The notes under the pieces are model-generated. The model saw nothing but the letters and a program-made list of their open reading frames with translations. It was not told the DNA's origin and searched no databases. A program made the position numbers and the translations under genes. A stretch of 63,676 nt of DNA, the filler included, from Phoronis australis (Eukaryota; Animalia; Phoronida): the NCBI GenBank assembly GCA_002633005.1. It is 5 parts of 5 records of this genome, joined end to end, with 100 filler letters (N's around TTAATTAATTAA, not from the genome) between each part and the next. Parts side by side here need not be neighbours in the genome. Positions count along the whole stretch, not along the records: positions 17,996 to 45,634 come from NMRA01001312.1; 4 more parts are not named here. One strand, written 5' to 3'. The first letter of the stretch is position 1; every line of letters starts with the position of its first letter. Below, one piece after another: positions 22,320 through 50,290 of the stretch.

Positions 22320-23470
22320 AAATACATAAGTTATTAAATAAATAAAATAAATAATATGTGAAATTAAAACAAAATTTAAAATACTATATACAATGTTAAC
22401 AAAGTTGAGCAATTAGCACCATAGGAAAGGAGACTATGTTTGATTCATAAAATTACGGATACTGCATTTACAGGGAAGCTCAGTCCATGCGTTTTCATGC
22501 TGCATAACATTCTTTAAATGTAGGCACAATCTCGCCTCCTCTGATAATGAATTCCACAAATTAATGCCATGTATTGGCTCTGAAAGATAGTAGACCATAC
22601 CGAGTAGTTCTGCATTGACAGATGTTTGTTCTATTGGATGATCTCAAGTTATATGGGGTCCTGCGAATTGTAAGAAGGTCCCACAGAAATGGAGGTGACG
22701 AGCGGTTCACAATTTTAAAAGCCTCTTTCAGAATCAGTGTCTGTCTGCCAAGCTCAAGAGTAGGTAGATTAGCTCTCAGTAATAGTGTTTCATATGAGCT
22801 AGAGAAATCATCAAATACAAAACGCAGAGCCCTACATTGAACTCGTTCAATCTTATGTGTATTGACTTAGCCACAAAAATGTCAGATCAAAGCACAGTAA
22901 AGAAACTGGGATAAAATAAAACTTTGAAATATCATCATCCGTCTACTAAAGTCTAGAATTCTAGCCAAACGCGGTAAAACATTGAGCTGAGCTCCTGCCT
23001 TTCGGCATAAAACTTTAACATGGTTGTCAAAACTCAGGTCCTCATAGTAATTTAACGTCCACCTCACTGGTGATTTTGGCTCCCTCAGCCTCGACAACAG
23101 CCCTGAATACGTTCTTGGAGTCATGAAGAAATATAGAATGGAATTTTGATGGATTTGCCTCCATCATATTTTGCTTGAACCAGGTAATTGCTTTTAAAGA
23201 CTCAGATGTCAGTATCATCCCTTATGCGAGCACTTGCTGAGAGAGTGTTATCATCGGCATAAGTATACAACTGTGCCTCAGTAAATAAGACACTGATATC
23301 ATTCACAAAAATATTGAACAGAACTGGACCCATGATGGACCCCTGTGGCACTCCCTTGACTATGTCTAGCCAATCGCTAGGCATTCCACCGATCCTAACA
23401 CGCTGTTTCCTTCTTGACAGATAGGACCATAAAAAGGCACATGCTTGTTCACTCACACCGTACGCTCTTG
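22320..23470 (-). mobile_element. 5'-truncated CR1/L2-group LINE (3' RT region and AT-rich tail)
   Basis: SYLSRRKQRV..GVPQGSIMGPVLFNIFVND..YADD (23202-23470) and LSFDNHV..LCRKAG.QLNVL.RL (22882-23050); (ATTT)n-like tail near 22320-22355. Confidence 0.85.
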
Positions 23471-23899
23471 ATTCCTTGACCACACTTACTGTAAATGAAG
23501 AAGTGCGAGCAGAGGAATTTTCCATTTTCATCTTTGCTCAGTTGTGACATTCTAGAACTCCTTTCGGTGGAATTCCTGGTTAAAGGTTGTTTTAATTGTT
23601 TTCAAGGTTATGTAGCACCCTAGAAAAAATTTCAGTTTTGGCAAAACGTCGGAACATCATATGCTTTATCCCATATATTTGTAAGTATGGGCATTTAATA
23701 CGCCGTCTACTACGTCGTCAGATAAGTCTTGAAATACGGGTAAGTAGAGCCGCAATCCGTATACAATGGTAGAGGCTGTATTTCATAGTTGTTGGTGTGC
23801 GGTCTCCTGGCGCAGTAAATTGGCGTGTACGACGGCAAATTTGATTGACCTCGTTTATTTGGGTTACGTAAAACATTGGTCCAAGGCAGTTTTCCTTCA

Positions 23900-26800
23900 T
23901 AGTCCAGTCATTCTATGGATGACCCGGAAATAATCGCAACAGAAGGTTTAATTTCTTAAATCGAATCCTTTCACATCCCGTAGCGTGAGAAAAAAGTCTA
24001 CCGGAATCGGAGAAGCGGAAGATGGTTCTTCAAGATGGCGGACAAAATGGCCGTCAGATTTGCAGTTGACTATTATAACTCGAGAGGTTCACCTATATTT
24101 TGTGGGTCAACAAATCCATTGGAAATAGTTTTGCTTGGCTGTGGTGACACCGTCCGCCATTTCCCAAGATGGTCGCCAAAACCACTTTGAGTCGCACAAC
24201 TTTGCACGAACAGATTAGTGTGTCGTCTTGACTTAAACATTGCATCATAGGTTTTCTGGGTCGACTATTGCGTTTGGCTAAAATGATTACTTCAGCCATT
24301 TTCTAAGATGGCCACCAAATTGTTCCTTCGTGTAAGAACTTCAGAATCCAGGAACACGCCGTCTTCACAGATTTCGTATCCTGATTTTCATAACATAACG
24401 TAAAATTGCCGTGAGGACTTGACAGGGACCTCAGGGGCCTCACACTCCACTGATTTATCCACATTATTTTGAAAACGCTTTGTCCAGTCACACATTGTGT
24501 GTCATAAACGAGATAAGCATACCAGCAGCTGACGCAGCAAGTAGAACTACTCTCGTTTATCACATAGGTGTTGACTCACAGTTGAACTGTGGTTTTCTGT
24601 AGACCCCAGACCGTCCCGAGTTGCACCATATACCAACTCCGGACGGTCTCTCACGACGATTAAGCATGTCTATTAAAATTATTTTTGTCTGACTCTGATG
24701 ATTATGACTACCATTTTCAAGATTGTTAAACAAATAAGAACTTTCTTGGGTGAAAAACATCAGGTTCGCGTGGACTGAAGGGTCATTCTCCTGAAAAAAC
24801 ATTTGCTTTATCGAAAATAATTCTCTGCAATTAATTTAGTGATCTACTAACCACACCAATTGACCGTCTGTGTTACCTCCAGATAATTGTAAATTCTAGT
24901 GAATACAGCAACAGTTGAGACAGGATGCCCACTACTAAGTCTGATTGGATTTCTGTGTTTGACGAGTGCCTTTGCTGTTTGCCAAAAATTGTGAACTTCC
25001 TTCTTTGACTTGATCACCATGTTACCATTGAAGTGAATTTCAATTCCAACCACACCACCCACTCTTCGAACTGGTGGACTTGTCATTGCAATAACCTTGT
25101 CTTTCTTTCTGAATGTGAAGTCTTTCCCACTCGACCCCTCCATAGGCAAGATAATCGCCTTCCCCGCTTCTGTGACATTTTGGCATTGACACGTGTGCCT
25201 GCTGTCACACCAGTAGCGATGTTCTGTGGTGTTTCCCTTTCAAGTGGGTTTCTGTTTTGTAGGAATTCAACAAGGCTGAGCATGTCTTTGTCATCCCGCA
25301 ACTGTGTTGAATGTCTTTCTTTATGCTGCTCAGTTGTATCTCAGTTAAAAATCGTCACACTCTGCGTGGCACCATTTATACTTTAGCATGCTGGCAAGGA
25401 AAGCAGCCACTGTGCACGCTCCGTATGTCCCATTCCGCAACCGCTTGTTAAACCTCCTGTGGATTTAATGGTTTTCATGAGCGTTTGTTCAATTACGAGG
25501 TCAAATGACAAGCCTTCCTAGAATCTGTCACTTCGTGTTATGGCATGGTGGCCGTTAATAAAGGGGCTGTAGACATCTGGGTGGGTGTCTTTGAGTTGCT
25601 GCTTCTGCTGCAAGTATATTATGCAGATTTTGCATATGAGTTGTGACCAGCAACTGCAAAGTAAGGCAGCATTTAAGAAACTGCTTTTAGGAGAAGTTCC
25701 TAATCTGACGTTATTTTTGCTTTTAGACCGATGGTTCGACTTTGGAAGGACAAGTCTGATTTATGTGCTTTGTTTTTTATGTCGGCCTATTCGTACAAGA
25801 CACTCCGACAAGCATACATCGCCGCTCGTAGACGTCACGCACGGACTATCATCATACAGCTTCAGACCAGCTTTCAAATCATCGAGTATATCAGTGGCCA
25901 TTGATTCTTCTGACGAACCATTCTGTGTCACTGCAAATTTTGGAGACCTATACTCTGATACAGTCGTGTTTGAATATATTAGTAGCAGTTTGTTGGAAGC
26001 CAGAAGTGAACTCTCGTGAGGGTATTTCACTGTAATCCAAGGTTCAGAATCCGAAGACACTGCCTGCTCATTGCATGTCCCAGTGTATACATCTCTAGTT
26101 ATGTGATCAGTTGGGATGTCTGAAGAATCTGTCTCCATATATCCTGACTAGCCAAAGTTTGTGTACAAGCATTGAATTGCTCTACGGAATCTGTGTGTTC
26201 TGTGTTGGTGACATTCGGGACTCCTGGAATTTCTGAAGAACCGAAACTTCTTTTTTCAAATCCTGAAGTCATTGGTTCTGGATTGGCGTTACTTGATTTG
26301 TCAATATTTGGAAGTTAGATGTTGAATGCACTGGCTGTTCTGATAGCATTCAGTGCTGAGTCTAGCAACATAGGCCCCCTCACTGCTCTGTCCACACTTT
26401 TTCAGTTCGACATACGGATCACGCTTTTTGGTGCATACACTGTGGCAAGAACGTCTTGAAGCCTGGTGCCTGACATTACGTATCCAATACATCCCAGAAA
26501 GCTCATCTCAATATGAAATCCGCCAAGCCTAGCTAAGAATAAGTGACGGCAGATCAGTGTCGTTTGGTTTGCTGACACTAATTTCCTCTAAACTCAGTTA
26601 CCTATGTTCATAAAAAGCATGCATATTAAACCAGTTGTGAGTACTAAGTGTTAAGCATTTAATTATTAACTTTTAGTTACACAAATTTATTTACTTTTCA
26701 TCAACTTCAGGTGAAATCAGCAGCCAAATTCTCCACTCATGTCAGACGAAATCTTTGCATGGGAACAACTAATAAATATCTCCTATAACAGAGAGCAAAG

Positions 26801-28088
26801 CCACTTCTTGTCCAATGTAATTCAGGATTGGTGCAATGGGAATGAGCCAACAATTCCACCAGAATTACATATGTTGAAACAAATATTATTTTTGATGCCT
26901 CAAATGAATATATTTTAGAGAAAAATATTTCAGTGTGTGAAATTTATTATGAAAATTAACTAAAGTCTTTTCTGAAAAAAAACAACCTTTATGTTAAATA
27001 ATCTAAAATGCGATTAAAATTACACATTTAGTGCCTAAAAGTTAAAAATAATTTTTATAAACAATCAACTCATTAAGCCTGACTGTAGATTGTAAGAGGT
27101 TTTTGTGTAAATGCTTATCTGGTTACAAACAAAGTTTGCAGAATGCACATGCTGTAAGTTGGGGTTTTGAGAGTTGGCGGCCATTTTGTCAGTCATCTTG
27201 ATTTTTTTCTCTCTAACCAGTGATCAACTGTACAGGCCAGATATTTTCAATTGTCCAACTTACAAAAGCATAGAATTTTTGCCATTTTCAGGGCAAAGTA
27301 TAAAAAGAAATTTTGAAGCATGTACCAAATTGCCGTTTTGGCCACCATATTGGTTTTATTTTACGGAAAATTGGCATCTTTTGATTAGTATCCCCGTTAT
27401 GAAAAGTATATAATGAATGGCAAGCTTTATTGCTTTATTTCCAGCTGTTACATAGGAGTAACATGCCAGAAAGCAGTAAACACCGTTTTGTCGGCCATTT
27501 TTTCTGCCATCTTGAAAAACCGACTTCTGCCACACCAATTTGGGTAGACTTTTTTCTGGAACCAAGGGATGTTTGAAGATGCCTTTTATGCAAAAAACCT
27601 TCTGTTACAATTTTTTCAAGGTTGGGCCCTCAGTGCCCGGTTGCATGAAACAGTCCCAAATATGGACTCAACTAAGTTCCCTAAATCTACTGCGTATTTT
27701 TGGACTTGTGGAAACATCGATAGACCTTGTATCGTTTTAGTTTCATTACTAAGTCAACTCTTTACTTTGATACAAATCGAGAATGAACTCTACCTTAAAT
27801 TGTCAATATTGTCGAAAATAAGGAGGAATTTTTTCATGCAATACCCGCTATTTAAGGACTAAGTCCCTATTTATTTTCAATGAACTCTGGGATCAGGTTT
27901 TAATCATATTATTAGAAAATGTCATTAATCAAAGAAGAGCTCTTAATAAAGATGAAATGGTAGAAAAATATTACATCTGTCAGTCCATAAAGACAAAAAT
28001 ACCCAAAAAGACTTAGGGACCTAAGTTGAGTCCCTATTTGGGACCGTTTCATGCAACCGGACACTGGAGCCCTAGAATGACTAGACTA
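23900..28088 (-). mobile_element. Academ-like DNA transposon, internally deleted, with transposase remnants
   Basis: Termini TAGTCCAGTCATTCTA...TAGAATGACTAGACTA, imperfect ~150-bp TIRs (shared AACAGAAGG, GAAAAAAGTCTACC, TTCAAGATGGC) and 3-bp TSD TCA (23897-23899 / 28089-28091). Minus-strand remnants DTHPDVY..HHAITRSDRF*EGLSFDLVIEQTLMKTIKSTGGLT, FLQNRNP..NIATGVTA and DFTFRKKDKV (25080-25680). Confidence 0.8.
27631..28066. mobile_element. MITE (Harbinger-like TIR) inserted in the right TIR of the Academ element
   Basis: ~58-bp TIRs CAGTGCCCGGTTGCATGAAACAGTCCCAAATA... / ...TATTTGGGACCGTTTCATGCAACCGGACACTG; TSD unresolved. Confidence 0.8.
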
Positions 28089-28729
28089 TCAGTCTCTAAA
28101 AGTATAAACTTACAGAAAAAATACCAATAAAAATTCGTATACAAGGTGACCAAGCGGTTATTTTAGGCCTCGCTAGTTTTTATTTCGGTTAATGGCTCCC
28201 TTAGCGCCACCAAACAAAATCGGTCTCGTTGGGACATTCGCAGAGGAAATGGATTCTAAATAAATGTCGCACTAGGAGTCCTATGCATGAGGGATAGCTT
28301 ATACAGTTTCCTATAACGCTGTTACTAATTTTTGTAAGACGTTCCACTTCTGAATGACGAACATAACTGTTTTTCACGAAAAAATTAAAGTTGCATAGAA
28401 CGAAAATGAAACAATAAATGAGAGATCTATGAGAGTGTTTATGAGATTTTTTCTTTAAAATTTATATCAAACGCAATTTGGTCAAGTTTGCTATGAAGAA
28501 CCTTTCTTTTTTGCAAAGTTTTCCTTAAAAAGCAAGGTCACGCGACCTAATTAGTGGCAGATTACAAAAGAAAATAATTGCAGGAGGTCGGATAGAATTT
28601 GTAGCAGACGTGTGCAGGCCGCTCAAGTGGCCCCGCTGCACTGATCACCTGGAAACATTTTTATACTTTATTCATATAAAGTTAAAACTGATCTGAAAAA
28701 CTAGAAACCTGACTCAAGCGCCTAGCAGT

Positions 28730-28797
28730 GTGCACCAGTGAGACCAGAACCCACGACCTTGATTAAAGGAAGCGGACACTTGTCCGACTAGGCTGCA
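28730..28797 (-). other. tRNA-derived (SINE-head-like) sequence
   Basis: Minus strand GCAGCCTAGTCGG...AAGGTCGTGGGTTCTGGTCTCACTGGTGCAC has A-box-like and B-box-like motifs. Confidence 0.45.
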
Positions 28798-29292
28798 TCA
28801 TGTTCTCCAGTAGCAAATTGGTATACAGTCAAAAATCAGCTTATACTGTTGTTATTATAAGTTTCTGCTTTCAGATATACCTTTGTTGGGTTGAATTGAA
28901 TAGTTTTGTAGATATTTTGTTAAATGTACAGTAAGGACCCTCATAACATCAAGGTTCTACATTTTTTGTCATTATCCTGAAATCAAACGATTCGCCCGTT
29001 AGCGGATTTGTCATTTTGGAATGAGTTTTTTGAAGTTTGCGAGTGTATGCTATGTAGTGCTTAGTTATTTTTTCATTTGGGTAGTTAACCGTCATGATGA
29101 GGGAATAGACATTTACGTTTAAAAACTTGTCTTGATGGTTGACACCAATGGCGTGCCAGGACTACACTTGAAATTTGGCTGTGACAGTTCTTGTTTAGAA
29201 GAGTTATGAATAAGTCCTTAATGTTCGATAAATGGAAACGGCCAGAATTTATTAGAACACAGATCATTTACAAAACATTTCAGAATTCCAAA

Positions 29293-32200
29293 ATGGATGA
29301 CCAAGCTGTGAAGAACACTGCCAATGACGATGGCGGCTTGTCGTGTAAGTACCTAAAGATGACGAATGATTATAGGTGAACGTACTCAGATCTTCGATTA
29401 TTCAGGTATTTCCTGATTCAAGTCTTGCTGAAACAAAACCTCACGTATTCCAAGTTCCAAGTAAACATCGGCCTTAATATTCAATCTTCACAGAACATTG
29501 CTACTGATAAATGTAGCTTGAAAATGTGTAATCAGAGTTCGACACTTATTGTTCTGTTTTAGATTGAACTACCTCTTCTGGCATATCTAAACGTCAAAAA
29601 TCAATTGTGTGGACTGTATTTTTATGAGGCGTAAGCGCATTGGTTGTGTGTGTGTGTGTGCGTGTGTGTGTGTGTGTGTGCGNATAGGGTTTAACATTTT
29701 TAGCAGAATTTAAATGTAAGGTGAATCAATTTGTCAATGGTGTTCACATTATTTCAACATTTTGCCAAAACAGTTCCGGATGGCGAATCTGCGCAACTGG
29801 ACGAAGAAGAAGCCAAATTATCCTCAACACTAAGAAAATTGACGAAGGAAGACAGAAAAACTAAGACTGGCGGGGAGATACTTAAAAAAATGGGCGAAAT
29901 TCATATGAAACGCGGTTTATTGAAAAACTGTAATCGCCATTTTGTGACTGCATCAGCATTATTTAACGCGGCTTTGATGAGAATTGACGAAGTAAGAATG
30001 ATTAAAGAGATTGAAACATTGATAGGAGAAAACGAAAAAGCTTTCTGCGCCATGGTGTCAGCACCAGGTACAGACCTACCGATGTACTTCAAGTTTGAAA
30101 CCAAGGCAAAACTGGAGAAGACAAGGAGTGAAGTTTTCCCTAAAGCTGAAAAGGCATTAAACGATTTTGCCCACAAACTTAATTTGGAAGCGCCGGAAAG
30201 TGATCGAATACAATTAGAAAAGACATTTTTGGAAGAAACAGAGGCCATCTTTAAGGACATTTGTTCAAGCATACATCTGTTTGACCATTATCTCCTGTCG
30301 AAGTGCCAGGACATCTTGGGACTTCCTCCACAAGAATACACAGCCATAGCCATGGGTTCTTTAGCGAGAGGTGAGGTAACACCGTATTCAGATTTAGAAT
30401 GGGCTATTTTGGTAAAAGATGATACCCAAGATTTGGAGTACTTCAGAAATATGGCCCGACTTATGCACTTGTTTGTTTTGAACATTGGGGAAACAGATTT
30501 GAAGACCATGTGCATCAAGACACTTAATGACTGTGATTCGCGAGGAGAGAATTGGTTTGTAGACGATGTTGTTGCCCGGGGATTTGGCTTCGATAGTGCA
30601 GTTCCTTATGCTTGTAAGACACCACTGGGTCGACCCGACAGACCTGGTAAACCAGGCATTGAATTAATCAGAACGCCCAAAAACATGGCTAAGTTATGTG
30701 ATGTTGAGACAGCTCTTAAGGAGGGCTATAACTTTGATCGTGTTCTAACGACTGTAATCAAACTTGATGGCAGTGATTTACTTCTGAGAGAATTCAAGTT
30801 ATCAAGAGCGAGCAATCAAAGTACAAAAGTTGCACGTTTAAAATATTTATCAGAAATTCGAACTCTAGTCCGGGAATTTCTGCCTCAGCTCAGTTTTTAC
30901 TACGATTTAGAAGCGCGGCATGACATCAAAAAAGAAATGTATAGATTACCGACCTTGGTTATCAGCCTTTTGAGACCTTTGTTCGGTTTGGACAACAACA
31001 ACACGTGGGACATGCTGAATGAAATGAAATCCAAAGGAATATTGTCTGAGGAAGGGGCACACAACTTATTGGTAACAGTCTCCATAGTCAGCCTTTTGAG
31101 ACTGGTGATGTATTGTCGTAAATCCAAACAGGAGGAGTTCTTTGTGTTACTAGGAAGCCCAACGCAAACAAGTCAATCGTCCAAAGAAATGTCGGGATAC
31201 AACATAATATCAACTTTAGTAGTCAGATATTATTTTTCAATATACCCATTTGCTGATTATGTGAGAGATTGTCAGTTTGAAGATGCAATTGCAATGAAAA
31301 AAATAGATGGATATTTTTTCAACAAAAACGAATTGCTCGAAGGTTGCATTGAATTCTCTTGCCGCCGTTTAGAAAAAGCCAGAGAAAAATTTTTCGCACA
31401 CATTGAATCAGTCTCATCAAAGAATTTACGTTTCAATCAAAGTGACCCAGAAGACATAGTGCTTTGCTATAACGGCAGCGATAGTCTTTGTGATCACACA
31501 GACGCGTCGGTTAACGCTTGCCTGAAATTGATTGGTGACTCGTACTTGTTTGGCTCTCAGGCTAGCAGAGCTTTACATTACTATGATCGCGCATTGTGCA
31601 TAGCCGAGAAAAGTATGGGGATTTTCACTGAACGGAGTGGAGCATTAGAGCATGAGTCCTGCTTTCCCGAATCACTGCATACACCCGTAAATATATCTGT
31701 GGAAGTTTTGCTTGCACTCCGAGTCGATGCAGATGGCACGATAGATATATCCAAACACTTTCTGGCCAAGTGTGAGGACACACTTGAAACTACGGAAACA
31801 ATGCTCAACAGAATTGACGAATACGACTACCGGTGTGTTCTTTTACAGCACATTGGTGCAGCACATCGGCTTAAGGGGGATTTCAAGGTAGCCTTGGGAT
31901 ACTTTAAAAAGGCCCTACGAGAATGTAGAGAAATTAAGAGTGTCGGTCTTCTACTAAAAAATATTGCTGATATTTATCAGGTCATGGCTAACTACAAATT
32001 ATCGTTACAATACAGTCAACATTCGCATAACATTATGAACATAATACATTACAGTGTTGAACATCCCGACATCGCTTATGCTTTATATCATATAGGGGGC
32101 GTGTATGATGGTATGAATCAATACAATCTTGCCCTACAATATCATGAAGACTCCTTGAACATGATGAAGAGGATATATGGTGATGTGGACCATCCTGACA

Positions 32201-35200
32201 TCGCGCCTATTTTGAATAGTATTGGGAGAGTGTATAGGCGTACACGAAATTATGGACTGGCCTTACAATATCACCAAGAGTCTTTAAGTATGACGAAAAG
32301 ACTATTTGGTGATGCTGACCATCTCCTCATTGCGTACAATTTGATCGCCACTGGCGATGTGTATCAGGATACGCGAAATCACGAGTTTGCCTTGCATCCT
32401 TATCAAGACGCACTGAGTGTGTTAAAGAGGTTGTTTGGCGATGTTGACCATCTCTTAATCGCTGACACATTGACCAACATTGGGAATGCGTCTATACAAA
32501 TGGAAAGGTATGAAATGGCTTGGAAGAACTTTCAGGAATCACTGAGTATGAGAAAGAGACTTTTCGGTGACAAAGATCATGAAAAAATCGCCGTCGGATT
32601 GGTGTCGGTTGGTGTTTGGTATCATCAGATGGAGAACCACGAATTAGCCTTACAGTATTTGCAAGACAGTTTAAGCATGTTCAAAAGACTGTTTGGTGAC
32701 GTTGATCTTCACGACATTGCTCTAATTTTAGTGAACATTGGTCGTGTGCATGGTGCTATGAATAAGTGTGAGGTAGCTGTGCAATATTGTCAGGACTCAC
32801 TGAGTATGATGAAGAAGATACATAATGATGTTGGTCATCCTGACATTGGAGATATTTTGAGTCACATCGCACAAATCTACCGTAGCGTGGGTAAGCCAGA
32901 GTTGAGCTTAGAATATAGTAAAAGGTCCCTAAGAGTAATGAAGACATTTTATGGTGATGGTGACCATCCCGACATTGCTTTGATTTTAAATGGCATAGGA
33001 GATACGCACTGTAATATGAAAAGGTTCGAGTTAGCAGCACAGTACTTTCAAGAAGCACTGAGTATGAGTAGAAGGATTCATGGTGATGTTGATCATCCCG
33101 ATATTGCGCAGAGCTTACATTCCATAGGGGTTGTACATGTCGATATGAAGATGACTGCGTTGGCTGTGCAACACTTACAAGAATCACTGAGCATGAAAAG
33201 AAGAATTTACCGTAATATTGACCATCCAGACGTTGTCATAATTTTGCGTGACATTGGGTTCGCGTATAATAAGTCTGGTCAATACAAATCAGCTTTAGAT
33301 CATGTTCAAGACTCGCTGAATATGATGAGGAGAATGTATGGTGATGTCGACCATCGTGATATTGCGTTAAGTTTGTGCAGGCTTGGCGATATGTATCTTC
33401 ATGTGAACAAGCGCGAGCTTGCCTTACAGAGTTGTAGAGAAGCACTGGCCATGTGGAAGAGAATACATGGTGATACTGACCATCCTGACATTGCTATAGG
33501 GTTACACTGTGTGGGGTCTCTAAATCGCAACATCAGTCAATACCAGTTATCTTTCCAATACCTTCATGACTCCCTGAGTATGATGAAGAGAATATACGGT
33601 AATGGTGATCATTCTGATATTGTGGAAAGTTTCACAGAAATTGGGCATTTGCATCGTGATATGAAAAAATATGAGTTAGCCTTACAATATTACCAAGATT
33701 CACGAAGTATGATGAAAAGAATCTATGGTGATGTTGATCACACTGAAATTGCTTCAAATTTAGGCTGCATGGGGGACGTGTATAGCGACACGTATAAGCA
33801 CAAGTTAGCCTTGCAATATTTTCAAGACTCATTGAGTATGATGAAAAGGATACATGATAGTGGTGACCACTCTGACATTGCACGGACGTTAGAAGGCATT
33901 GGGTATGTTTATTGCAAGATGGATAAGCACAAGTTAGCCTTGCAATGTCTCCAAGACTCTCAAAGTATGAAGAAAAGAATATATGGTGATGTTGATCATC
34001 CCGAAATTGCTTCAAACTTGAGGTATATCGGGAGCGTGTATAGTGACATGAAAAAGCACAAGTTAGCCTTACAATACTTTCAAAACTCATTGAGTATGGT
34101 GAAGAACATATCTGATAGTGGTGACCACTCCGACATTGCACTGAGGTTACAAGACATTGGGAATGTGTATTGCAAGATGAGTGAGCACAAGTTAGCCTTG
34201 CAATGTCTCCAAGACTCTCACAGTATGATGAAAAGAATATATGGTGATATTGATCATCTTGAAATTGCTTCAAATTTACGCTGTATTGGTATCGTGTTTA
34301 GGGACATGAATAAGCACAAGTTTGCTATACAACACTTTCAAGACTCATTGAATATGGTGAAGAGGATATGTGATAATGGTGGCCACTCTGACATTGCATT
34401 GGGTTTAAGGCTCATTGGGAGTGTATATTACGAGATGGATAAGCTCGAATCAGCTTTGCAATATTTTCAGGATTCTCAAAGTATGTGGAAAATGATTTAT
34501 GGTGATGTTGATCATCCTAAAATTGCTTCGAATTTAGGTTGTATTGCGGGCGTGTATAGCAACATGAATAAGCACGAGTCAGCCTTACAATACGCTCAAG
34601 ACTCATTGAATATGAAGAAGAGGATATATGATAACGGTGACCACTCTGACGTTGCACTGAGTTTAGGGATTTGTGGTAGTGTGTATCGTCAAATGCAAAA
34701 TTACGAGTTAGCCTTGCAATATTACCAAGATTCACGAAGTATGATGAAAAGAATGTATGGTGATGTTGATCATCCTAAAATTGCTTCAAATTTGGTCTGT
34801 ATAGGGCGGGTGTATAAAGACATGGACGAGAGCGAGTTAGCCTTACAATACGCTCTAAAATCTAGCAGTATGATGAAAAGGATATATGATGATTGTGACC
34901 ACTCTGACATTGCACTGAGTTTAGGGCTCATTGGGAGTGTGTATTGCAAGATGGATGAGCACAAGTTAGCCTTGAAATATCTCCAAGACTCTCAAAATAT
35001 GATGAAAAGGGTGTATGGTGATGTTGATCATTCTCACGTTGCTGAAATGTTTCGCCAAATTGGATTTGTGTATACAAAATTGGGTAAGCTAGACTCAGCA
35101 TTGGAATGCTGCCAGAAATCGTTAGATATGACGATTAGATTGGAAAACGGGCTTGATCATCCTGATACTGCCACTCTCTTGAAGGAAATTGGGTCCCTCT

Positions 35201-35421
35201 GTTTCGCTATGGGTAAATTAGACATGGCAATGCGCAGTTACTTGGAGGCCTTTGTAATGAGAGAACGACTTGGTTGTAACAACGACAGCTGGGACAATGC
35301 AGTCATGTTGAGTGAAATGAGTGAGGTGTACAAACAGAGAGGTAAATATAAAATGAGTGAAAAATATCTGGAAGATTCAAAGAAAATGTTCAAAAGGTTG
35401 TCTGTCTCTTTGACTGAATAG
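29293..35421 (+). CDS. Nucleotidyltransferase (Pol-beta superfamily, GlnD/GlnE/DUF294-like) fused to a long 43-aa TPR array; exons 29293-29344 and 29774-35421, ~1900 aa
   Basis: 1896-aa open frame 29731-35421. It carries AMGSLARGEVTPYSDLEWAILV (hGS-x10-DhE NTase motif, ~30349-30414), a helical region DIKKEMYR...TWDMLNEMKSKGILSEEGAHNL...LLRL resembling DUF294_C, and tandem HPDIA..L..IG.VY...ALQY.QDSL.M.KRIYGDVD repeats. The ORF-track TTG start is unlikely. ATG 29293 (MDDQAVKNTANDDGGLS+T) is followed by donor GTAAGT at 29345, and acceptor AACAG at 29769-29773 restores the frame (phase 1: T|TT CCG GAT). Confidence 0.9.
32062..35286 (+). repeat. Coding tandem repeat: 25 x 129 bp (43-aa TPR units), followed by a degenerate 26th capping unit
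   Basis: CATCCCGAC (HPD) at 32062 and CATCCTGAT at 35158 lie exactly 24 x 129 bp apart, and every unit is 43 aa in the translation. Confidence 0.95.
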
Positions 35422-37045: not shown

Positions 37046-37906
37046 CTATTGAGATTTGAGAAGAGAATATTTCCGTCTGTCTAGTGTTATAAGTGTGTCG
37101 GGCTGGTTACCAAGCTTGTTGCGCAGGTGTTCAGACTTTCCTTTGAAACACTCGCGGTAAACCTTAAATCCCAAAAAGACTAGTTGAATGACGAGGATAA
37201 TGGTGGCGAGAACGAGAAGCCCCACCGACAGTCCTTCTAATCGAGTGCAGATGTTGACGATAAGTTGAATAAGTCGCGTCGTGTGCAGAACGTGGTGGAC
37301 GAAAACGTGACGGAAGTACTCCCTGAATATAACTTGTTCCAAAAACACCACGACGGGTATGGTTAGGTAATAGAAAAACACGTGACCGTAGAGACCCATG
37401 AAATCGTCGGGGAAGAGATATTTCCAGCGCTGATCCATGACGATCGTGATGCTGCAGAGAAGAATGTGATGATCCCAACCAGCGTACACTGAAAGCCCGT
37501 TGGTGACAAGCCACTTGATCAAACAGAGATCCCATTCGTGAAGTTCCCTCCGCAGCAGGGCATGATTGTCGTGCAGTCTCTTAAGGACAGATACGAGACA
37601 TACAACAGCGCAGATGACGCGAGTGAGAGACAGAAACATGGACCATTCAAAATCACGCGAGTGGACCAGTAATCTCCACCAGGTGCCGCTGATGATGAAG
37701 CTTGAGCCGTACATAAAATAAAAGTTCTCGCTGAACAACTCCGGATAACAGTAGACATAGTTCATCGTTCCGTTCACTCGGAATATACTGCTAGCTATAT
37801 AGACGATCACTGCAAACTGCCATGCCATGACCAAAACGCCAACCAGTTGTTCAAAGTGAAATGTTCCATATTTCAAAGGAACTGTAAAAGGGTCGATGAG
37901 AGCCAT
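37046..37906 (-). CDS. Multi-pass membrane protein, 286 aa; divergent member of the uncharacterised TspO/tryptophan-rich-sensory-like family of invertebrates and fish
   Basis: Uninterrupted ORF with several hydrophobic segments. AWQFAVIVY, YPELFSENFY, DLCLIKWLVTNGLSVYAGW and FLEQVIFREYFRH recall that family's consensus (AWQ..W..Y / DLW.IR.LVQNG...YATW / LEN...D.Y.RY). The 5' end may belong to an upstream exon. Confidence 0.65.
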   Translation of the reverse strand: MALIDPFTVPLKYGTFHFEQLVGVLVMAWQFAVIVYIASSIFRVNGTMNYVYCYPELFSENFYFMYGSSFIISGTWWRLLVHSRDFEWSMFLSLTRVICAVVCLVSVLKRLHDNHALLRRELHEWDLCLIKWLVTNGLSVYAGWDHHILLCSITIVMDQRWKYLFPDDFMGLYGHVFFYYLTIPVVVFLEQVIFREYFRHVFVHHVLHTTRLIQLIVNICTRLEGLSVGLLVLATIILVIQLVFLGFKVYRECFKGKSEHLRNKLGNQPDTLITLDRRKYSLLKSQ

Positions 37907-40900
37907 TATCTTCGCGCGCTGGTCGACATCGTAAGTAAAATAGAGGTAGATCCTATCGGATCTGCTTCAATAATGCTGTACCCTAATCCGTCATTACTAT
38001 TACTGTGTGACGAACCTGCTGTTTGGTTTACGACGAAAGCATTACAGGCCACGCTACGAAATTAATGCGGTCCACGCATCGTCTGTGACTACAGTTGGTA
38101 ACGGAAATAGAATCCAGTCACGGTAAGGAATATTACGACACCACTTTATGAGAGTAAATGGCCTAATTCAATTTTTGTTTTAGCCAGGTTCAGGCGAAAT
38201 GCAGCTCTAACCAACCAGGACGCATGGTTCAGGTAAAAATTGCAAGATTACTCAAAAGTGGTATGCAAATGGTCAATTAGATATAGATAAAAAGAAAAGT
38301 TGCCCTTTGTGTAGAAGTTTCTTTGTCAGTTTGGCATATACCGTGATTTCCTGTAGATAAGCCCACCCGATGAAACGCCCATTGGCGTTTATTCGAAAAA
38401 TTTTGACACATAAACGCCCGTGGGCATTCAGTTGGTGTTATAATTTCTAGTGCCAAGTGTTCAGATAGTGAGGGCGTTTATTTGGAAAATTTCCTCTTAA
38501 ATGCCCACTCAGCGTCAACTTTTTGTCACAAATTCAATTTTGCGAAGCATTTATCATTGATAATAACGAACACGATGTTGGCGAACTATGCATTTATTAA
38601 CATAAAACACAGTTTTAAGTGAACAAAAATATGAAAGTCATCAAAAATATGACTTGCCGTTTACATGCTCTCCTTCGTTAATTTTGGTGTTGCAAAACGC
38701 CTAAATTTTTTCATTACTCAAATACACACCCATGAGCTTATCTACGGAAAATGCCAGTATGAAATTTACTCATTATAAAGTGTATTTTGGGCCTTTCGAG
38801 TCGACTTCTATCAAAAAAGTAATAAATAGTCTAAACCAGAAGTATAAAACTTAGACAGTCGCACCTGCAGTGTGCTTGATCTGTACCTACTGGTTATATT
38901 ACTTTGGTTATTACTGCAAATACAATGCAAAATAATAATAGATAAGCCCAGAAAGCACTGGAAACCGTTATATAAAGGCGCAACTTTTTCTGGCAAATCA
39001 GCGCCCAAGTCAAACGGTAAATGGTTACGTACCGAGGATGAGGTTATCAGAACGAGGCGAGAGAACTTGCCATGAAATGTTGAAGCTGTTCAGTCAAACG
39101 ACGACAACCTTAACAGCATGCTGCAATTCACGGTACGCGAGGGCAAAACTGTCGTACATCCTGTCGATGTAAGTTGGGTAGGGGGCTATCTAATGCTGTG
39201 AAACTAACCTGAAGACCACCACGTGATCGCCTTGCATGTCAACTCAGCCGAGTAGCAGACGAATAACGAGCCAATGAGCACTAGTAGACCTTTGTTGTGG
39301 ACAGGCTTCCAAGAAAATCCCTAAAAAGTTTGAAGAATGTCATTCTCAGTGAATCGCAATACAAAAAACTCTCCATGTACGAGTATATCGACATTATTCT
39401 CCATTCAGCTAACTGGCTGGCTAGCTTTTATCCTTTTTGCGATAACGTTGGTTGCAATAATTCGCCTGCTGATTACCCTAACGACCACAATGACTCGGTA
39501 ACTGCACCAAACCCGCCGTGACAAGCAACTAAATGGCGTGGTCTGAAGGAACAACATTCTACTGGTTGAGTCTTCTTCAGCAGAGAAATCATTTACTATC
39601 CGAGAAAGGTTCATGACATTGAGTTTAGAAGTCACAGGTGGCCTGAATAAAAAGGTTGCTTTCACAGGATATTTAGAATATTGCCGGGTTATTCTCTGAA
39701 AGACTCGTAATCAGGAGGTGCGTCTCTTTCATTATCGGGAAAAGTTTCGACAGGGAAAATAATCTTACTCCCTCATAGTTGTTAACACGGTCCTTGTCTT
39801 TGGAATTCCAAGCTGGTATAACCTCTAATGGGGCTATTCGGAAAATCTACAATAACTAGAGGGCGTGCGTGTACTAGTGGTGATAGATAAACAGCCTCGA
39901 TTTCGCGAGCCCTTTTTAAAAATACATGGTGAAATGGCTTGCAGCCGTGCCAACTGAATCTGAGATTGCGTAAAAAGAGTGCTTCTATATGAGAGGAAGT
40001 AAGCACGACCACATACAAAGGTAAGGTTTGTGATTATTTTAACGATTATTCCATGATTATTCTACCGATGCCTGTTAACTGAGGCACTCGCCGTGTCGAC
40101 TTCGCGGCAGTCAGTCGCCAGCCAGAGTCTGGTTAATCTTTGTATGTTGTGATATGTGATACGATACTTAACGTAGCAATCGGGATCTCTTCGTACATCA
40201 AAGCATTATTATTGTTTGGAATGATTTCTCAAAGTTTATCAGTGACAGTTACATCAATCAATGCTGAATGTTTATACTGTCAACTCGATACAGGTTAATG
40301 AGTTAAAATTACAATCCAATCCCAATGGCAAAGGGTACGTGAGTGATAACTATCCATTGCATTAGACTATTTGTTTACTCCCTATCATATGTCTTCTGGA
40401 AATCTATTACACGTTGAAATGGAAATCTATCACGTCAGTTTTCACGTAACCTTTGGTTTTTAGGTTTGAAGGCTTGTACCGTGCAGAGGAGATATGCATC
40501 GCTTCTGCACCGTCCTTGAATGGACAAAAATTGGTTTTCTGCATTTGACTGCAGCTAACCAACAAGATCTTCCCTACTTTCAATATTGGAGACAACGAAC
40601 AAAGCCTTTGAAAAGGAACAGCTTATTTTTAAAGTCATTTTGTTAAATTACTTATTCAGGTCCCGAGGGGGGATTGGCATGGGGGGGTTGTAATCTTTGG
40701 TACAACTGAAGGTGTGGAAATAACAGGTAATACATGTTTGGGGAAAAGAGCATGGTGAGGTAATTCTTAACCTTCACGAAGTCCCTTCAAGTTGATTTCA
40801 TGAAACTGTTTTGCTACTTGTATCAATTGTAAAACCACGAAAATATATTACATTTTCCGAATTCACAGTGACTGAATAGTCTTAACTCATGCCTTGAAAT

Positions 40901-42680: not shown

Positions 42681-44952
42681 GCAAAAGGTACCCGCTCATC
42701 CAAAACCTTTACGGCTAACAGATGGCACTTTCCATCAATCACGTGGTTTGTCGTTTTATCGCCAAAGGGTGGCACTACATATTTCCGGCTGTCGGCCAAG
42801 GGAATAACAATAACAAATTGTCAATGGGCGAGGGACGGACTTGGAGGTTAACATTTTAAGGTGCCGTAAACATTCGACGTCATCAAGTGCTTAGGACTGA
42901 ATGTGATTCACTTAACACAATTCTTACTCATTTAAAATCTCACTGCTCTAAGTTTAAAATCTCACAGTCTGAACTTTCCCTGCCTATTTTTCTTGCCTGT
43001 TGTGTTGCCAGTGCTGGGCTGAAGTTTGTCTTGGCCCGATGCCTGCCAAAACCAAAGTACCAATAAGCTTCAAATGTGAAACTAGAGAACACCCCCTCCT
43101 CCTTNGTGCTGGGCTGAAGTTTGTCTTGGCCCGATGTCTGCCAAAACCAAAGTACCAATAAGCTTCAAATGTGAAACTAGAGAACACCCCCTCCTCCTTC
43201 ATCCAGGCTTGGGACTGGCAAGGTGTTTTGATGCAAGCACCTTGGCGGAGTTAGGTGATTTTACCTTTTGTGAACCAGCTTCAATTTCCAATTATCTTCA
43301 ATTTCCCAAATATTTTCAATTTCCAAATAAATGCCACTTTTCATATTAACCATTGGTACTGCTTAATTTTATCAATTGGTGAGAACTGTTCATTGGGTGA
43401 ATCTCAATAGCACAACTATTTTTTTCTCAATTCACAGATTGTACCCAACAAAATCCTCTTTTTTGCAAAAATCTTGTGAATTACAGTTGAAGAAGGCTCA
43501 CTTTAAATAATAACAACGTTGTGCAAGAATCCAAAAAAATTTATTTCTTCAAAGTAATACAATTGCCATTAGCTCGCTATATACTTCTACTAAGACTAAC
43601 CAGCGTAAACACTCTGTATGTAAACATGAGCAAAAGTCACGGTGTAATGAATAGATCATCACTAAGGCATCAGAAGTGATTTCACAGTCAATACATATTA
43701 ATAAATTACACGTGTATATTAATGAATGCAACATGAATAAATAAATAAAGCAAAATATGTTGCCATGCCCACAAGACTCATGGTCCGTTTACTCTTGTAT
43801 TTCCGTGTCACATGTTAAACAAAACCAGTTTACGACGGGAGGTGGTGGATTGTCTTCCATCAAGTTAACACATTTGAAATGGAACCAGTCATCACATTTA
43901 TGACATTGGATTGATGGTGCGACACCATCATCTGGATCGGAACATTCCATGTTACAAACAGAACAGAAGAAATGTTGCAAACTGGTTTTAGGTTTGTTTC
44001 TTTGTTTTTGAAATCAACTTCGTCTTCTGCTTTGCAATGTTCGCTAAACCTGTTTTTTTTGATGCTGCCAGCTCATTCAGTTTGTTGAGTGGAAATTTAT
44101 TCATTTTTGAAAGGCAAGCATCCTTTTCTTTGAAAGCTGCAGTTGCAGCTGAATGTTCCTTAAGATGGCCGCGAAAAGCTTGAAGGTTGTTAAAAACTAC
44201 ACTTTCACCATTTTGTTGACAGTATCCACACCTCCTCTTCTTGTGCTTAAATTCAATGTGTCTTTCTAGTGATTTCTCATTTGTAAAATAAAATGGTTTG
44301 CTGACACCTTCTAAAATACAAGTGTTACAAACCTGCAACTCCTCGAGTATTTCATTGCTGAAGTTGGAAGCTATGTACTGTGAACACTGGTTTTCTTTTA
44401 TTGGCTTGAATTTATTCACAGGAACAGGGTCTTGTATGTAAGTAGACAAGTCTATTGCATTTTCCACCTCACCAGTTTTGGTTCGTATAGATCCTATTAT
44501 GTCCTTACCCAGTGCTTTCATTCCAGATTGTGCAACTTCAATAAAAATTTTTCTTGTAGCTTTTCTTTTTGTTTTCCTCCCACAAAATGTTTCTTTTGAC
44601 TTGTCAGGTCTTGGTAATATAGGTCTGTACGATATCAGTAAATAATGATATACAATAAACGTTTAATCTACAATCAAACACCTTAATACTACTACTAGAA
44701 TTTAAATCACACTTAAAATATTTATAAACAATGGTAGTCCTGAAAAGGACTGCTGAGTTAATCAGAATTACGATCGATGAATAATTCACGAAATCGCAAC
44801 ACGCCTCGTCTCAAATAGGACTGTCTGCTATCTGTCAGATTTCCTGCAAGAACGTCACATGACTGCAAGCAGCGCTACCTGTTAGTAAAGCGTCATTGCA
44901 TCCAGCGCCATCTGTTAGCCGTAAAAGTTTTGGATGAGCGGGTACCTTTTGC
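42681..44952. mobile_element. Non-autonomous TIR element with 9-bp TSD (Mutator/MULE- or Merlin-type)
   Basis: 46-bp TIRs GCAAAAGGTACCCGCTCATCCAAAAC(C/T)TTTACGGCTAACAGATGGC (42681-42726 / 44907-44952, one mismatch); TSD ATTGCTGAA at 42672-42680 and 44953-44961. Confidence 0.9.
43789..44521 (-). pseudogene. Two C2H2-like zinc fingers plus C-terminal PHD finger, split by one frameshift; cargo of the TIR element
   Basis: CNTC..HIEFKH and CGYC..HLKEH in 43988-44521; C4HC3 PHD (CSVC..IQCHKCDDWFHFKC..WFCLTC) in 43789-43980; the frames differ by 1 nt across an A-rich tract. Confidence 0.8.
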
Positions 44953-46413: not shown

Positions 46414-48495
46414 TAATATGTTAATACAAGTTGGACTTCAGGCTAACCAGGTATCGTATTTTGTGACTTTTTAGTTCATGTTCTATGACAAATTAATTAA
46501 TATTTTTATCAAATGATGAAACAGTTGGCAACGGCAATAAACTACAATTCCCATTATTTCTATGAACTTTTCATTGTTTAATTCGTTAATCAGATAAGAA
46601 AAGGCACAAATCTACATAATGGGCAGTTAGAATACAACTAGCTCTCTCCAGCCAGCATAGAACTTCTTATTAATGGTTCATGTACATATTTCATACTGTT
46701 TCAAATTCAAACCCTGATAGCAGCACTATTTTAACTCAACAATGAAACATAGGAAGCTCTACCTGCCACGTCGATGTACACAGCCCAATACCACCGCTGG
46801 GTGATTGTTTGGATGCAGATGTTTGGATGTCTAGTTCTTCCAAGTACTCCGCCAAGTTAATAGAGACCTGAAAACAATGTGATATTAGCAAACATAACAG
46901 TATGTGATAGCTTCTTAAGAATCGAGACATAACCCGTTTACAGGGAATGTTATCCATGTAATGATCAGGGGCGGTGGGGGGTCCAGGATTTTGAGTTGGG
47001 GGGTTAAGGTAGAGTGGGGTTTTGCCCATCAGACATTCAGTCCCTGCCCCCAAACTGCCAATTGATCTTTAAGCGTTTTAGGGGGCCGTGGCCATGGTCC
47101 CTTAGCTGTCCTCTGAATCCACCATGGAAGATACTGGCATGGTCTTCACGAGAAGTCTTACGTAACCATAATAGTTTACAGTGAAAATAAAATTATTATC
47201 TCATGCACTACAGCAAGCATACAAATACTATATCCTGTGCTCCTACCAATCATTTTACTGGCTGACATTTGCAAAGATATTAAATTGACAGACATGAGGA
47301 GATCATTCTAGTCAGTCCATATTCAACTCAACTCAACTCCTAGGCAAAGTTGTACCGAGATTAACAATCACTTTTACCATGACACTGAAATATTTGATTT
47401 CAGTAAAACCAGTCGAACTCGTATTAAGTGTGAAAATTTTAAGTCTGAGTATGCAAACTTTTGCGACATTTCTAGTATTTCACAACCCGATAAAAAATTC
47501 GAAAGCACATACTCAATCCCAAAGTCAAATCACACAGATTTTCCTTATTTGCAATGAATTATTTGGTGCAATTAGATAGGAATTATGCAAGTTTCACTGT
47601 GCTTAACAGTTGACTGGTGAGAGTTCACTTGGGTACATTGTGACCTATGCCGGGGGTTTTGGCAGTTGGGGGGGTCAGGTGGTGAATGTCTGAAAGGCAA
47701 AGCCCTACTCTGCCCTAACCCCCCCACTCTGATTCCTTGTTTCCGCCCGACCGCCACTGATTTTTACATGGATAACATTAACTGTAAATACAACGTGTAT
47801 CAGACCGCCTGCAATTATTTTTATTATACTGTTATGTTTCCTAATATCTCATTGTTTTCAGGTCTCTATTAACTTGGCGGAGTACTTGGAAAAACTAGAC
47901 ATCTAAACATTTGCATCGAAACAATCACCCAGGGGTAGTATTTGGCTGTTTACATCCACATGGCAGGTGGAGCTTCTTATGTTTCATTGTTTAGTTAAAA
48001 ATAGTGCTGCTATGAGGGTTGAATTTGAAACAATATGAAATATGACCTTGGTTTAGCCAATGGGCTTATAATCTTTAACAAGCTCACTGATTCATGTAGC
48101 CATTTGGTCAAGTCAATATAAAGCTTCTTGGTTTTGTTATAACTTTCGTAATGTACACGCGGAAGTATGTATACATGTGAGATTAAACTTTCAGATCTAT
48201 CCCTGGTTGTGCCAGCTAGATGTCAATGAAACATTAGTATGAAGTTCTATGCTGACTGGAGACAGCTAGTTAGAATACAACTAGCTCTGCTCAATTTGTA
48301 GAGTTGTGCATTTTCTTACCCGATTAACGAATTAAACAATAAAAAGTTCATCAAAAAATGGGAATTGTAGTGTATTGCAGTTTCCAACAGTTTCATCATT
48401 TGATAAAAATATTAATTAATTTGTCATAGAACTTGAACTAAAAAGTTACAGAATACGATAACTGGTTAGCCTGAAGTCCAACTTTTATTGACACA
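46414..48495. repeat. Long inverted duplication: arms ~46414-47060 and ~47660-48495 around a ~600-bp spacer
   Basis: AGTTGGACTTCAGGCTAACCAG and CAAGTACTCCGCCAAGTTAATAGAGACCTGAAAACAATG, among others, are mirrored in the right arm, which has an extra ~190 bp. Confidence 0.85.
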
Positions 48496-49162
48496 TTCAG
48501 TTTTGTCATATGCACGGTTTGTTCTAGATTGAGATAGCATGATAGTTGACCACAGCATGTTTTGTATTCAAGTTGTATAGAATAAAACTGTTTTGAATGT
48601 CGGGAATCCAGGATTAAAACTTCATTCAAAGCAGTATGTGGAAACGTGACTCACTGCAGTGCATGCTTGAAGTAAACGTGCAGACTAGTCTTGCACTTGA
48701 ATCCTGGAGAGTGGTTGATTAAATTTTGAGTTTGAAGACTATTTTCTAGGCTTTGTATATACGTCAGGAAGTTTTAAAAATCAGTGTTGTATAAACAGCA
48801 CGATAAATATCCAACAAGTTAAGTTGTCTTATACTGATAGCTTTTACCCATTTGTTATTAAAATTTTTTGTCTTTATTGCAGAGTGTGCCTTCAACAATC
48901 GTTGGATAAGGAAGGCTACCCAGACAACGCAACGTACGCACTTACGAACTGCAGCTCATGAACCTATGAATTCAGTTATCTGAGCTCAGAAATGCGCGTT
49001 TGTAGTCACAAAACATGGATTATTTGCCTGTGAAGCTAAGCGAGCAGATCCAGCTAAAAAAGATTAAGTGGCTTATGATCTACCATAGGGCCCCAGTGGC
49101 GGATCTANGATTTGGAGAAGGTGAGGTCAACCTTGTTTAAAATTCGTTCTCCATTCTTGTGA

Positions 49163-50071
49163 CTAATAGCTTAGTTTATTTAAGTCATGTTGAAGCTGCA
49201 AAGAACATTCAGGGCTGCTCCCTGCGAAGGGGTGAAAAAGCGCCGTGTCATCTGCATAAAGGTATGTGCTACATGACAGGTTATCAGGAAGGTCATTAAT
49301 ATAAACCAAGAAGAGAAGAGGACCCAATACGCAACCCTGCGGTACACCTGCGTTTACAAATCCAGGAGGGGATAAAATTGAAAGTACGCCGTCGACACGA
49401 ACACTGTATGTTCTTTCGGAGAGATATGAGGTGATCATGTTTAAAAGATTACCAGTAATGCCATAGGATCCTAGTTTGTGAAGTAGAAGGTCGTGAGGGA
49501 CACAGTCAAAAGCAGAAGCTATATCTAGAAAAATGGACCTGACACTCTCGCCCTTCTCAAAATGTAAATGAATCTCATGTACTATTTCAACAAGTTGTGT
49601 CACGGTGCTGTTCCCACGCAAAAAAACAAATTGACGATGATAGATCAAGTTGTTTTGTTTGAGAAATGTAAGAATACTTTGAGCAATGATCTTCTCGAAG
49701 ATTTTGGACAGGGTGTTAAGTAAAGTTATTGGGCTGTAATTTGAAATTTCAGTTTTGGAGCCTTTTTTGTGTATAGGGACCATAATTCCATGTTTCCAAG
49801 AAGACGGATAAATGCCTAGCTGAAGAAGTTTGTTAAACAGATTGGTCAGGGGCATGGTAATTTCGTTGGAAATCATTTTGATCATCTTGCTGGTTATTAA
49901 AGCTGTGCCATCATTCTTATTGGGGTCAATTTCATTGAGATACTTCCGGACATCAGTTTGATTAGCCGGGATGTCAGACAGTTGATTGAGACATCGTTCA
50001 CGTAGAAAGGGAAAGTTACTTACTTCAGTTGGTGTAATGTGGCTTTTGTTCGTGAAAAATTTGAGAAACAA
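49163..50071 (-). pseudogene. LINE ORF2 reverse transcriptase fragment
   Basis: RT motifs including PQG and YADD; ends at a stop near a repeat and single-N junction. Confidence 0.92.
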
Positions 50072-50290
50072 ATCACACTTGTCACTGCTACTTGAGGCTA
50101 GGTTACCATTATAGTTGATGACAGGATATGAGGATTGCTGTTGACTGCCGCGTATTTTATTTATTCCAGTATTCTTTGGAATTCTTGCTTGCGCTGTTAA
50201 TTTGTTGAAAAAGCTTGTGTCAGTGATCAGCTTTGGCTTGATTTACTAAAGTTTCAACCAGACATGTCTGCTCCTAGTATCTGTTGTAGA

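Follow-up and report, generated by a model that had tools for sequence, protein, structure and literature searches.

A phoronid gene joins a DrrA/GlnE-type nucleotidyltransferase module to a long TPR array and may encode an AMPylase used in defence

Introduction

The stretch of Phoronis australis DNA analysed here (63,676 nucleotides of assembly GCA_002633005.1, five parts joined end to end with filler, hereafter the window) carries on its plus strand, at positions 29,293–35,421 within the part taken from NMRA01001312.1, a gene whose predicted protein joins a nucleotidyltransferase module of the DrrA/GlnE type to about 28 tetratricopeptide repeats (TPRs). Our preferred reading, to which we give a probability of roughly 0.45, is that this protein AMPylates proteins selected by its TPRs, probably for defence against intracellular invaders. 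The two parts of this reading differ in strength: it is quite likely, judging from the structural model, that the protein is an active protein nucleotidyltransferase, and, given such an activity, a role in defence is somewhat favoured. A first interpretation of the same DNA made without database searches, called here the sequence-only reading, had proposed an animal nucleotidyltransferase of the GlnD/GlnE/DUF294 type fused to a TPR sensor array.

Results

The enzyme module is predicted to fold like DrrA and GlnE

The adenylyltransferase module, resembling DrrA and GlnE, spans residues 57–528 (29,899–31,314) and consists of a nucleotidyltransferase core and a helical domain; residues are numbered from position 29,731. 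We modelled residues 21–530 (510 residues, multi-domain) with a 71-row alignment and obtained a predicted local distance difference test score (pLDDT) of 90.1 and a predicted template modelling score of 0.90, whereas a single-sequence model reached a pLDDT of only 37. With this model Foldseek returned four matches at E <= 1e-3, namely DrrA (6yx5, 3.7e-8) and three GlnE chains, which bears out the polymerase-beta fold of the GlnD/GlnE/DUF294 group that had been proposed. In a second search, against 48,161 chains, DrrA/SidM was the top match (VIA Z 26.8, root-mean-square deviation (rmsd) 3.8, 330 residues aligned), followed by the N-terminal domain of GlnE (Z 23.7) and its adenylylation domain (Z 22.4), the next chain reaching only Z 11.8. 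DrrA and both GlnE domains were thus the top three in the Foldseek and the Z searches, with 303–330 residues aligned. Aminoglycoside nucleotidyltransferases scored about Z 8, and cGAS, OAS, CD-NTase and TUTase were absent from the structural matches listed, which does not by itself exclude families outside that listing. Judged by the model, the protein belongs to the DrrA/GlnE structural group of the polymerase-beta superfamily and its enzyme module is nearer to DrrA and GlnE than to GlnD, so that the type first named holds for the fold group, with DrrA/SidM and then GlnE, rather than GlnD, as the closest relatives.

The relationship to DrrA was also recovered by sequence. A family profile of 18 members finds DrrA at E 1.3e-4 with core and helical domain both aligned, placing D221 and E223 opposite D110 and D112 of DrrA and a K-x-x-x-Y-R motif opposite its counterpart in the helical half. 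The catalytic signature GSLARGEVTPYSDLE (30,355–30,399), which reads G209-S210-x10-D221-x-E223, aligns with G98-S99..D110-x-D112 of DrrA, whose catalytic residues are given as D110, D112 and D150 in the available text of PMC7815794. It is followed by a GFGFD motif ending in D288 (30,580–30,594) and a KTPLG motif (30,616–30,630). Among candidates for the third acid, conservation in 394 family domains was 100% for D288, the probable candidate in our view, 99% for E254 and 97% for D278. In the same domains G209, S210, D221 and E223 are conserved at 99–100%, G284, D288 and G300 at 100% and K296 at 98%. Pfam DUF294 matches the protein at 29–31 bits (E 5e-7), passing the cut-off of 21, and is matched by 18/18 rows of the family alignment at E <= 1.

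The helical domain (residues 364–516; 30,820–31,278), with K400, Y404, R405, R457 and Y461, is HEPN-like in the model. Pfam DUF294_C matches it at E 0.042, under the cut-off; the domain is visible in the model all the same and superposes alone on 3l0i (Z 11.3, rmsd 2.4, 128 aligned) and on the HEPN structure 6m6w (Z 8.6), in line with the DUF294_C-like domain initially suggested. The Rx4-6H RNase motif is absent from residues 365–520, and a GlnD/GlnE/DUF294_C group of HEPN-like domains without this motif is described in the accessible part of PMC3710099. At the N-terminus, residues 21–119 (29,791–30,087) form TPR-like helical hairpins whose model helices mostly exceed a pLDDT of 90 and match TPR structures at Z 9–12.

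An intact and weakly transcribed animal gene

The main part of the gene is a stop-free frame of 1898 codons on the plus strand (29,725–35,421, stop to stop), with an in-frame TGA directly before it. The start proposed at 29,293 does hold an ATG, which is not contiguous with this frame and lies instead in a separate candidate first coding exon of 52 nt (29,293–29,344; RNA depth in run X7 about 0.8) with a phase-1 donor GTAAGT. A predicted GT-AG intron with a (GT)n microsatellite (29,345–29,773) would separate it from the predicted main exon (29,774–35,421), which lies inside the long frame; joining the ATG exon to the AG acceptor at 29,773 gives 1899 codons and no internal stop. X7 depth across the predicted intron is 0 in the bin 29,394–29,640, with 0.8 and 1.4 on its flanks, and the 5' splice 29,344/29,774 is a prediction, no junction having reached the listing threshold.

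The intact frame of about 1900 residues, the quoted motifs and the order of TPR-like cap, nucleotidyltransferase core, helical domain, linker and TPRs are all as first described. The encoded protein contains no strongly hydrophobic segment and is therefore predicted to be cytosolic. It has no Pfam match to NACHT or NB-ARC and no Walker A motif, consistent with the claim that an NTPase switch domain is missing; F-box likewise gave no Pfam match.

DNA contigs from two runs (X1 and X2, possibly the source of the assembly and hence non-independent) match the gene with 0–6 differences per piece, cover it at a depth like that of unique sequence, and extend into its flanks. Three RNA runs (X5, X6 and X7) came from another study, and about one fifth of each was read. 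Reads of X7 cover nearly the whole frame at depth 0.6–7, almost wholly on the coding strand, and closer mapping yielded 207 reads, including 55 at >=99% identity; the transcript whose lack would have spoken against the proposal is thus present. In X5 none of the 220 reads reached 95% identity, and these therefore derive from paralogues or flanking repeats, while X6 left next to no reads over the frame. No second copy of the gene was found within the window, and the reads and contigs at <95% identity point to paralogues elsewhere. The gene is an intact, weakly transcribed animal gene.

The repeat array is probably longer than assembled

After the enzyme module, a linker with degenerate TPR units (31,315–32,058; two of them at residues 691–776) leads to 25 TPRs of the kinesin-light-chain type in an exact register of 43 residues, or 129 nt (32,059–35,283), and to a terminal capping repeat with the stop codon (35,284–35,421). 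With about three degenerate flanking units the total comes to about 28, in agreement with the more than 25 counted at first sight. Variability is highest at a few sites in the first helix, repeat positions 7, 10, 11, 14 and 17 (3.1–3.5 bits), which we take to be the groove-facing positions of TPRs. Identity between internal repeats is mostly 45–70% (maximum 90%), and a younger block at 33,674–35,031 consists of 5.3 copies (80% matches) of a 258-nt unit that comprises two repeats.

Within the array, a backward joint from 34,950 to 33,661 was seen in six X7 RNA reads (four starts) and one X2 DNA contig. It spans exactly 1290 nt, that is 10 x 129, and DNA depth there is about doubled, so the ten-repeat segment 33,661–34,950 is probably present twice in tandem. 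The array is probably longer than assembled, ten repeats having been collapsed, or alleles differ in its length; alternatively, the joint could stem from reads of paralogues mapped here. In the homologues fetched, mostly from amphioxus, the commonest repeat spacing is 44 residues as against 43 here, which suggests that TPR arrays were probably rebuilt separately within each lineage.

A multigene family in several animal lineages

Searched with its N-terminal 530 residues, the protein has matches in 1616 clusters (50% identity; E <= 1e-3), of which 331 reach 1e-30. Branchiostoma supplied 14 of the 17 matches in a first homologue search and every named row among at least 120 matches in a larger listing, and 30 cluster representatives that were looked up included eight from Branchiostoma, six from Owenia and one each from Saccoglossus and Jidaibacter. 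A member of one large clade, used as query, retrieved 903 proteins at E <= 1e-10, and the animals named among the at least 120 matches listed were Ciona and Clavelina. There are therefore many paralogues each in amphioxus, tunicates and the annelid Owenia, with separate expansions by lineage, and the possibility of a conserved single-copy housekeeping gene, which would have undercut the original proposal, does not describe this family. Among the matches listed none was named as a vertebrate, insect or nematode, and exact peptide patterns, a weak search, found 0 loci in viral contigs. Homologues measure 450–3712 residues, and the three acids are kept in 392/394 domains from 380 proteins. Three amphioxus paralogues, chosen by hand, have CARD, IRF, or Death plus Roc-COR domains. 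Several animal and bacterial chains (P0018, P0019, P0001, P0022, P0052, P0093 and P0150) hold two or three enzyme modules each, and some of the multi-module amphioxus chains may be merged gene models.

Bacterial relatives share the layout

By one peptide pattern we located relatives at five loci, divided between one Holosporaceae and one Parachlamydiaceae genome, with E values down to 3e-53; at these loci TPR-like cap, enzyme, helical domain and TPRs follow in the same order, and the N-terminal cap is present in the Holosporaceae relatives too. The two genomes gave 16 and 13 matches, figures that should not be taken for copy numbers. The family profile was found in 25/250 genomes of Chlamydiota as against 2/301 of Alphaproteobacteria, each count including the genome that supplied profile rows. 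The enzyme-plus-TPR layout thus occurs in Chlamydiota, Holosporaceae and Jidaibacter, all intracellular groups. Jidaibacter protein P0039 combines an F-box, two enzyme modules and TPRs, and an F-box is found in P0093 too. For Neochlamydia, the accessible text of Domman et al., 2014 (PMC4209131) describes 50 NEX2 proteins with F-box, optional OTU, DUF294 and TPRs; the members tested have a functional type III secretion signal, although only two are predicted to be secreted. The layout is accordingly not confined to animals but shared with intracellular bacteria, Neochlamydia with its NEX2 proteins among them.

A tree of 31 rows separates the 19 animal rows from the remainder by one branch (96/96) and joins the window protein to five rows from Owenia (92/94); a 187-row FastTree left it unplaced. 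With bacterial proteins as the structural relatives, a single early transfer from bacteria to animals would be the simplest account of this unrooted tree.

Some features of the bacterial loci are recorded for themselves. Two Parachlamydiaceae relatives (L003 2177–7192 and L005 2342–7582) are extended at the N-terminus by a region whose motif by eye resembles that of class I methyltransferases, with no Pfam match at 1e-4 for P0270. The L003 gene lies directly downstream of a dnaA-like gene. A neighbour of the Holosporaceae gene (L001 159–3827) encodes, by eye, a pentapeptide-repeat, NB-ARC-like, TPR protein.

Other features of the window

GC content in the window is 31–43%, with remnants of long interspersed nuclear elements (LINEs) and high-copy repeats. 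An intact frame of 306 codons on the minus strand (37,046–37,966) converges on the gene from 1.6 kb downstream and probably encodes a hydrophobic multi-pass membrane protein; it has no real Pfam match, and its look-alikes (0.86–0.88) are eukaryotic clusters, commonest in chordates and rotifers, which we treat as a lead only. Another minus-strand frame (43,988–44,662, 224 codons) contains a weak C2H2-like zinc finger, at E 0.003, under the cut-off.

A LINE retrotransposon remnant lies on the minus strand at 49,163–51,880 and is broken, since its endonuclease frame (50,291–51,880) and reverse transcriptase frame (49,163–50,242) are separated; two short minus-strand frames at 22,561–23,537 look by eye like fragments of a LINE reverse transcriptase. 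Very high-copy repeats occupy 24,001–25,000 and 27,501–29,000, with a summed contig depth of about 10,000–49,000 as against about 60 for the gene, and RNA reads are present there. Inverted ends at 27,624–28,072 resemble a miniature inverted-repeat transposable element, and long inverted repeats of 82–86% identity at 46,415–47,061 and 47,659–48,497 are possibly the ends of a DNA transposon. A direct duplication of about 960 nt (7,223–8,176 and 9,293–10,256, 97% identical) has a 36-nt unit repeated five times after it and perhaps represents an uncollapsed haplotype.

Discussion

Comparison with known systems

The whole two-part module superposes on DrrA/SidM of Legionella (6yx5, 3nku, 3l0i), with which it shares the motif G-S-x10-D-x-D/E. 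Unlike DrrA, the window protein has D-x-E rather than D-x-D, adds a TPR cap and a long TPR array, and is animal-encoded and multi-copy; SidM_N scores 13.8–16.2 bits as against a cut-off of 27, and the GEF and P4M domains are unmatched. GlnE/GS-ATase (3k7d, 1v4a) has the same fold at Z 22.4 and 23.7, and NCBIfam GlnD models match weakly over the motif (E about 1e-3, at most 17.8 bits, with cut-offs of at least 519 and of 890 for the best-scoring model). Unlike GlnE and GlnD, the window protein has one enzyme module instead of paired adding and removing domains, and the HD, ACT and GlnE models are unmatched. Neochlamydia NEX2, compared by its published description only, likewise places DUF294 before many TPRs and has expanded, whereas the window protein is host-encoded and, unlike most NEX2 members, lacks F-box and OTU. 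FICD and SelO likely catalyse the same reaction, and FICD also combines TPRs with an enzyme, but their folds (Fic and pseudokinase) are unrelated; in the text available to us FICD is a single gene in most metazoans (PMC8097203, PMC12409994), whereas the window family is multi-copy. NLR-like TPR proteins of fungi and animals, as far as the accessible text of PMC4986451 describes them, likewise have an N-terminal enzyme and a C-terminal TPR array, with probable variation in repeat number; the window protein differs in having no NACHT or NB-ARC match, no detected positive selection and internal repeats that are mostly 45–70% identical.

Identity with GlnD, GlnE, DrrA or an NLR proper was accordingly rejected on their defining features. 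The cNMP-CBS-DUF294 proteins (COG2905) carry N-terminal cNMP-binding and CBS domains; this identity was rejected too, the window protein having no Pfam match to either and an N-terminus that is TPR-like in the model.

In the available parts of two reviews FICD and SelO are the only AMPylases named for animals, and the DrrA/GlnE fold is assigned to bacteria (PMC8097203, PMC12409994); the accessible text of PMC12894286 adds no further one. No description of the animal family was found in the literature searched, the scope of which left supplements and subscription journals mostly outside, and, judged by title, none of the papers listed as mentioning DUF294 concerned animals. The part available of an amphioxus gene-transfer paper (PMC13350694) has a 'TPRP-like' entry and no mention of a nucleotidyltransferase, and the terms sought were absent from the main text, as available, of a Ciona immune-challenge paper (PMC10433773). 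The enzyme-plus-TPR layout is already known from Neochlamydia, and the new part is the animal family, which on the structural model is likely a third class of animal AMPylase.

Proposed mechanism

Protein AMPylation is our best guess for the chemistry, since all close structures add AMP to proteins or remove it, and the greater closeness of the module to DrrA and GlnE than to GlnD favours it over a second messenger. Of the two products originally suggested, protein nucleotidylation is thus the favoured one (DrrA/GlnE Z 22–27), and second-messenger synthesis is much less well supported. In this mechanism D221, E223 and D288 would hold Mg-ATP, and AMP from ATP would go onto a hydroxyl of a target protein, comparable to Tyr77 of Rab1 for DrrA or to glutamine synthetase for GlnE. 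The TPR groove would bind the target, and binding would also activate the enzyme, much as Rab1, by binding opposite the active site, switches DrrA on (PMC7815794, available text); target binding of this kind would make an NTPase switch unnecessary. A target-picking array fits the bacterial relatives, where TPRs sit with F-boxes, and each paralogue would have its own target range. The family would descend from a bacterial host-directed effector acquired early in the history of bilaterians, with separate expansions later in several marine lineages.

Behind a role in defence stand the repeated expansions, the probable variation in repeat number, the host-directed kin and the few fusions with CARD, IRF or Death domains. 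A bolder version of the idea, which we regard as doubtful, holds that bilaterians captured a bacterial host-manipulating AMPylase once and made of it a third class of animal AMPylase, in which many TPR-programmed enzymes per genome would each recognise a foreign or tampered protein through the array and disable it by AMPylation, as an immune weapon with neither an NTPase switch nor a messenger.

Several observations weigh against AMPylation for defence. The protein is 13% identical to DrrA, and enzymes of this fold can also take AMP off, as the N-terminal domain of GlnE does (Z 23.7). The transcript was found in one of three RNA runs and at low depth. Groove positions of TPR proteins are ordinarily variable, and the variability seen here is therefore no mark of immunity; positive selection among the repeats was not detected (pN/pS 0.72 at variable positions and 0.66 elsewhere, from 20 non-independent repeat pairs, all within one gene). 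Some homologues (P0020, P0097 and P0285) keep the enzyme domain and have no Pfam TPR match. Immune-domain fusions are few among the at least 120 matches, and the same amphioxus listing holds apparent merged gene models (fusions with eIF5A and beta-lactamase); the immune-domain fusions may likewise be artefacts of merging. The 394 domains in which the acids are conserved were picked by strong profile match, a choice biased against decayed copies, and the 31-row tree is unrooted, its rows hand-picked from named matches with tunicate rows left out.

Alternative explanations

Some of these observations would suit an enzyme that performs the same chemistry on the host's own proteins (small GTPases or chaperones, for instance) and has a developmental or physiological role, with the TPRs as plain substrate adaptors and the expansions arising from easy duplication of a compact gene. 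That no positive selection was detected in the repeats agrees with this, as do the transcript in one sample of three, which possibly indicates tissue or stage specificity, and the description of FICD TPRs as substrate-recognition modules in the accessible text of PMC8097203. We nevertheless consider it unlikely, given large, separate, long-branched expansions in several lineages with no sign of a conserved single orthologue, and bacterial relatives concentrated in intracellular groups. A pure sensor-effector, in which the TPRs inhibit the enzyme until a foreign ligand arrives and one fixed host target is then modified (leading, for example, to cell death), would work like an NLR without the NTPase. 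The pairing of an enzyme with variable repeats recalls this, as do the fungal NLR TPRs that are polymorphic in repeat number (PMC4986451, available text), the allosteric activation of DrrA (PMC7815794, likewise) and the few paralogues fused to CARD or Death domains; but P0020, P0097 and P0285 have the enzyme domain and no Pfam TPR match, fungal NLR repeats show positive selection whereas none was detected in those of the window gene, and the F-box sitting with TPRs in bacterial P0039 and P0093 suggests substrate recruitment, which makes this arrangement distinctly improbable in our view.

More improbable again is a nucleotide second messenger, or a modified RNA or small molecule, as the product, in the manner of cGAS, OAS, TUTases and aminoglycoside nucleotidyltransferases. 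These enzymes share the superfamily, and the last of them appear among the matches at Z about 8, yet a wide structural gap separates that score from the Z 22–27 of the protein-modifying enzymes. As for the absence of any working host gene, through endosymbiont contamination or a decaying insertion, nearly all coding sequence does lie in a single exon, close relatives do occur in bacteria and two of the three RNA runs gave next to no matching reads. Against this, the gene sits amid high-copy repeats in a LINE-bearing window at the depth of unique DNA, the tree places its protein with animal sequences (96/96), RNA from a separate study gave the 55 reads at >=99% identity, with depth almost wholly on one strand, and frame and acidic triad are intact; this explanation is very improbable and largely refuted already.

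Implications

AMPylation of TPR-selected proteins, if it is indeed what this family does, would give animals a third class of AMPylase, present in amphioxus, tunicates, a hemichordate, an annelid and a phoronid, and hence in two of the three chordate subphyla. Members of the family are labelled 'TTC28', 'KLC1' or 'uncharacterized', and the enzyme is therefore hidden in databases. With so compact a module, and with both Ciona and amphioxus in use as laboratory animals, the idea is directly testable. If true, it would also mean that an effector of the kind used by symbionts has been taken over by their hosts.

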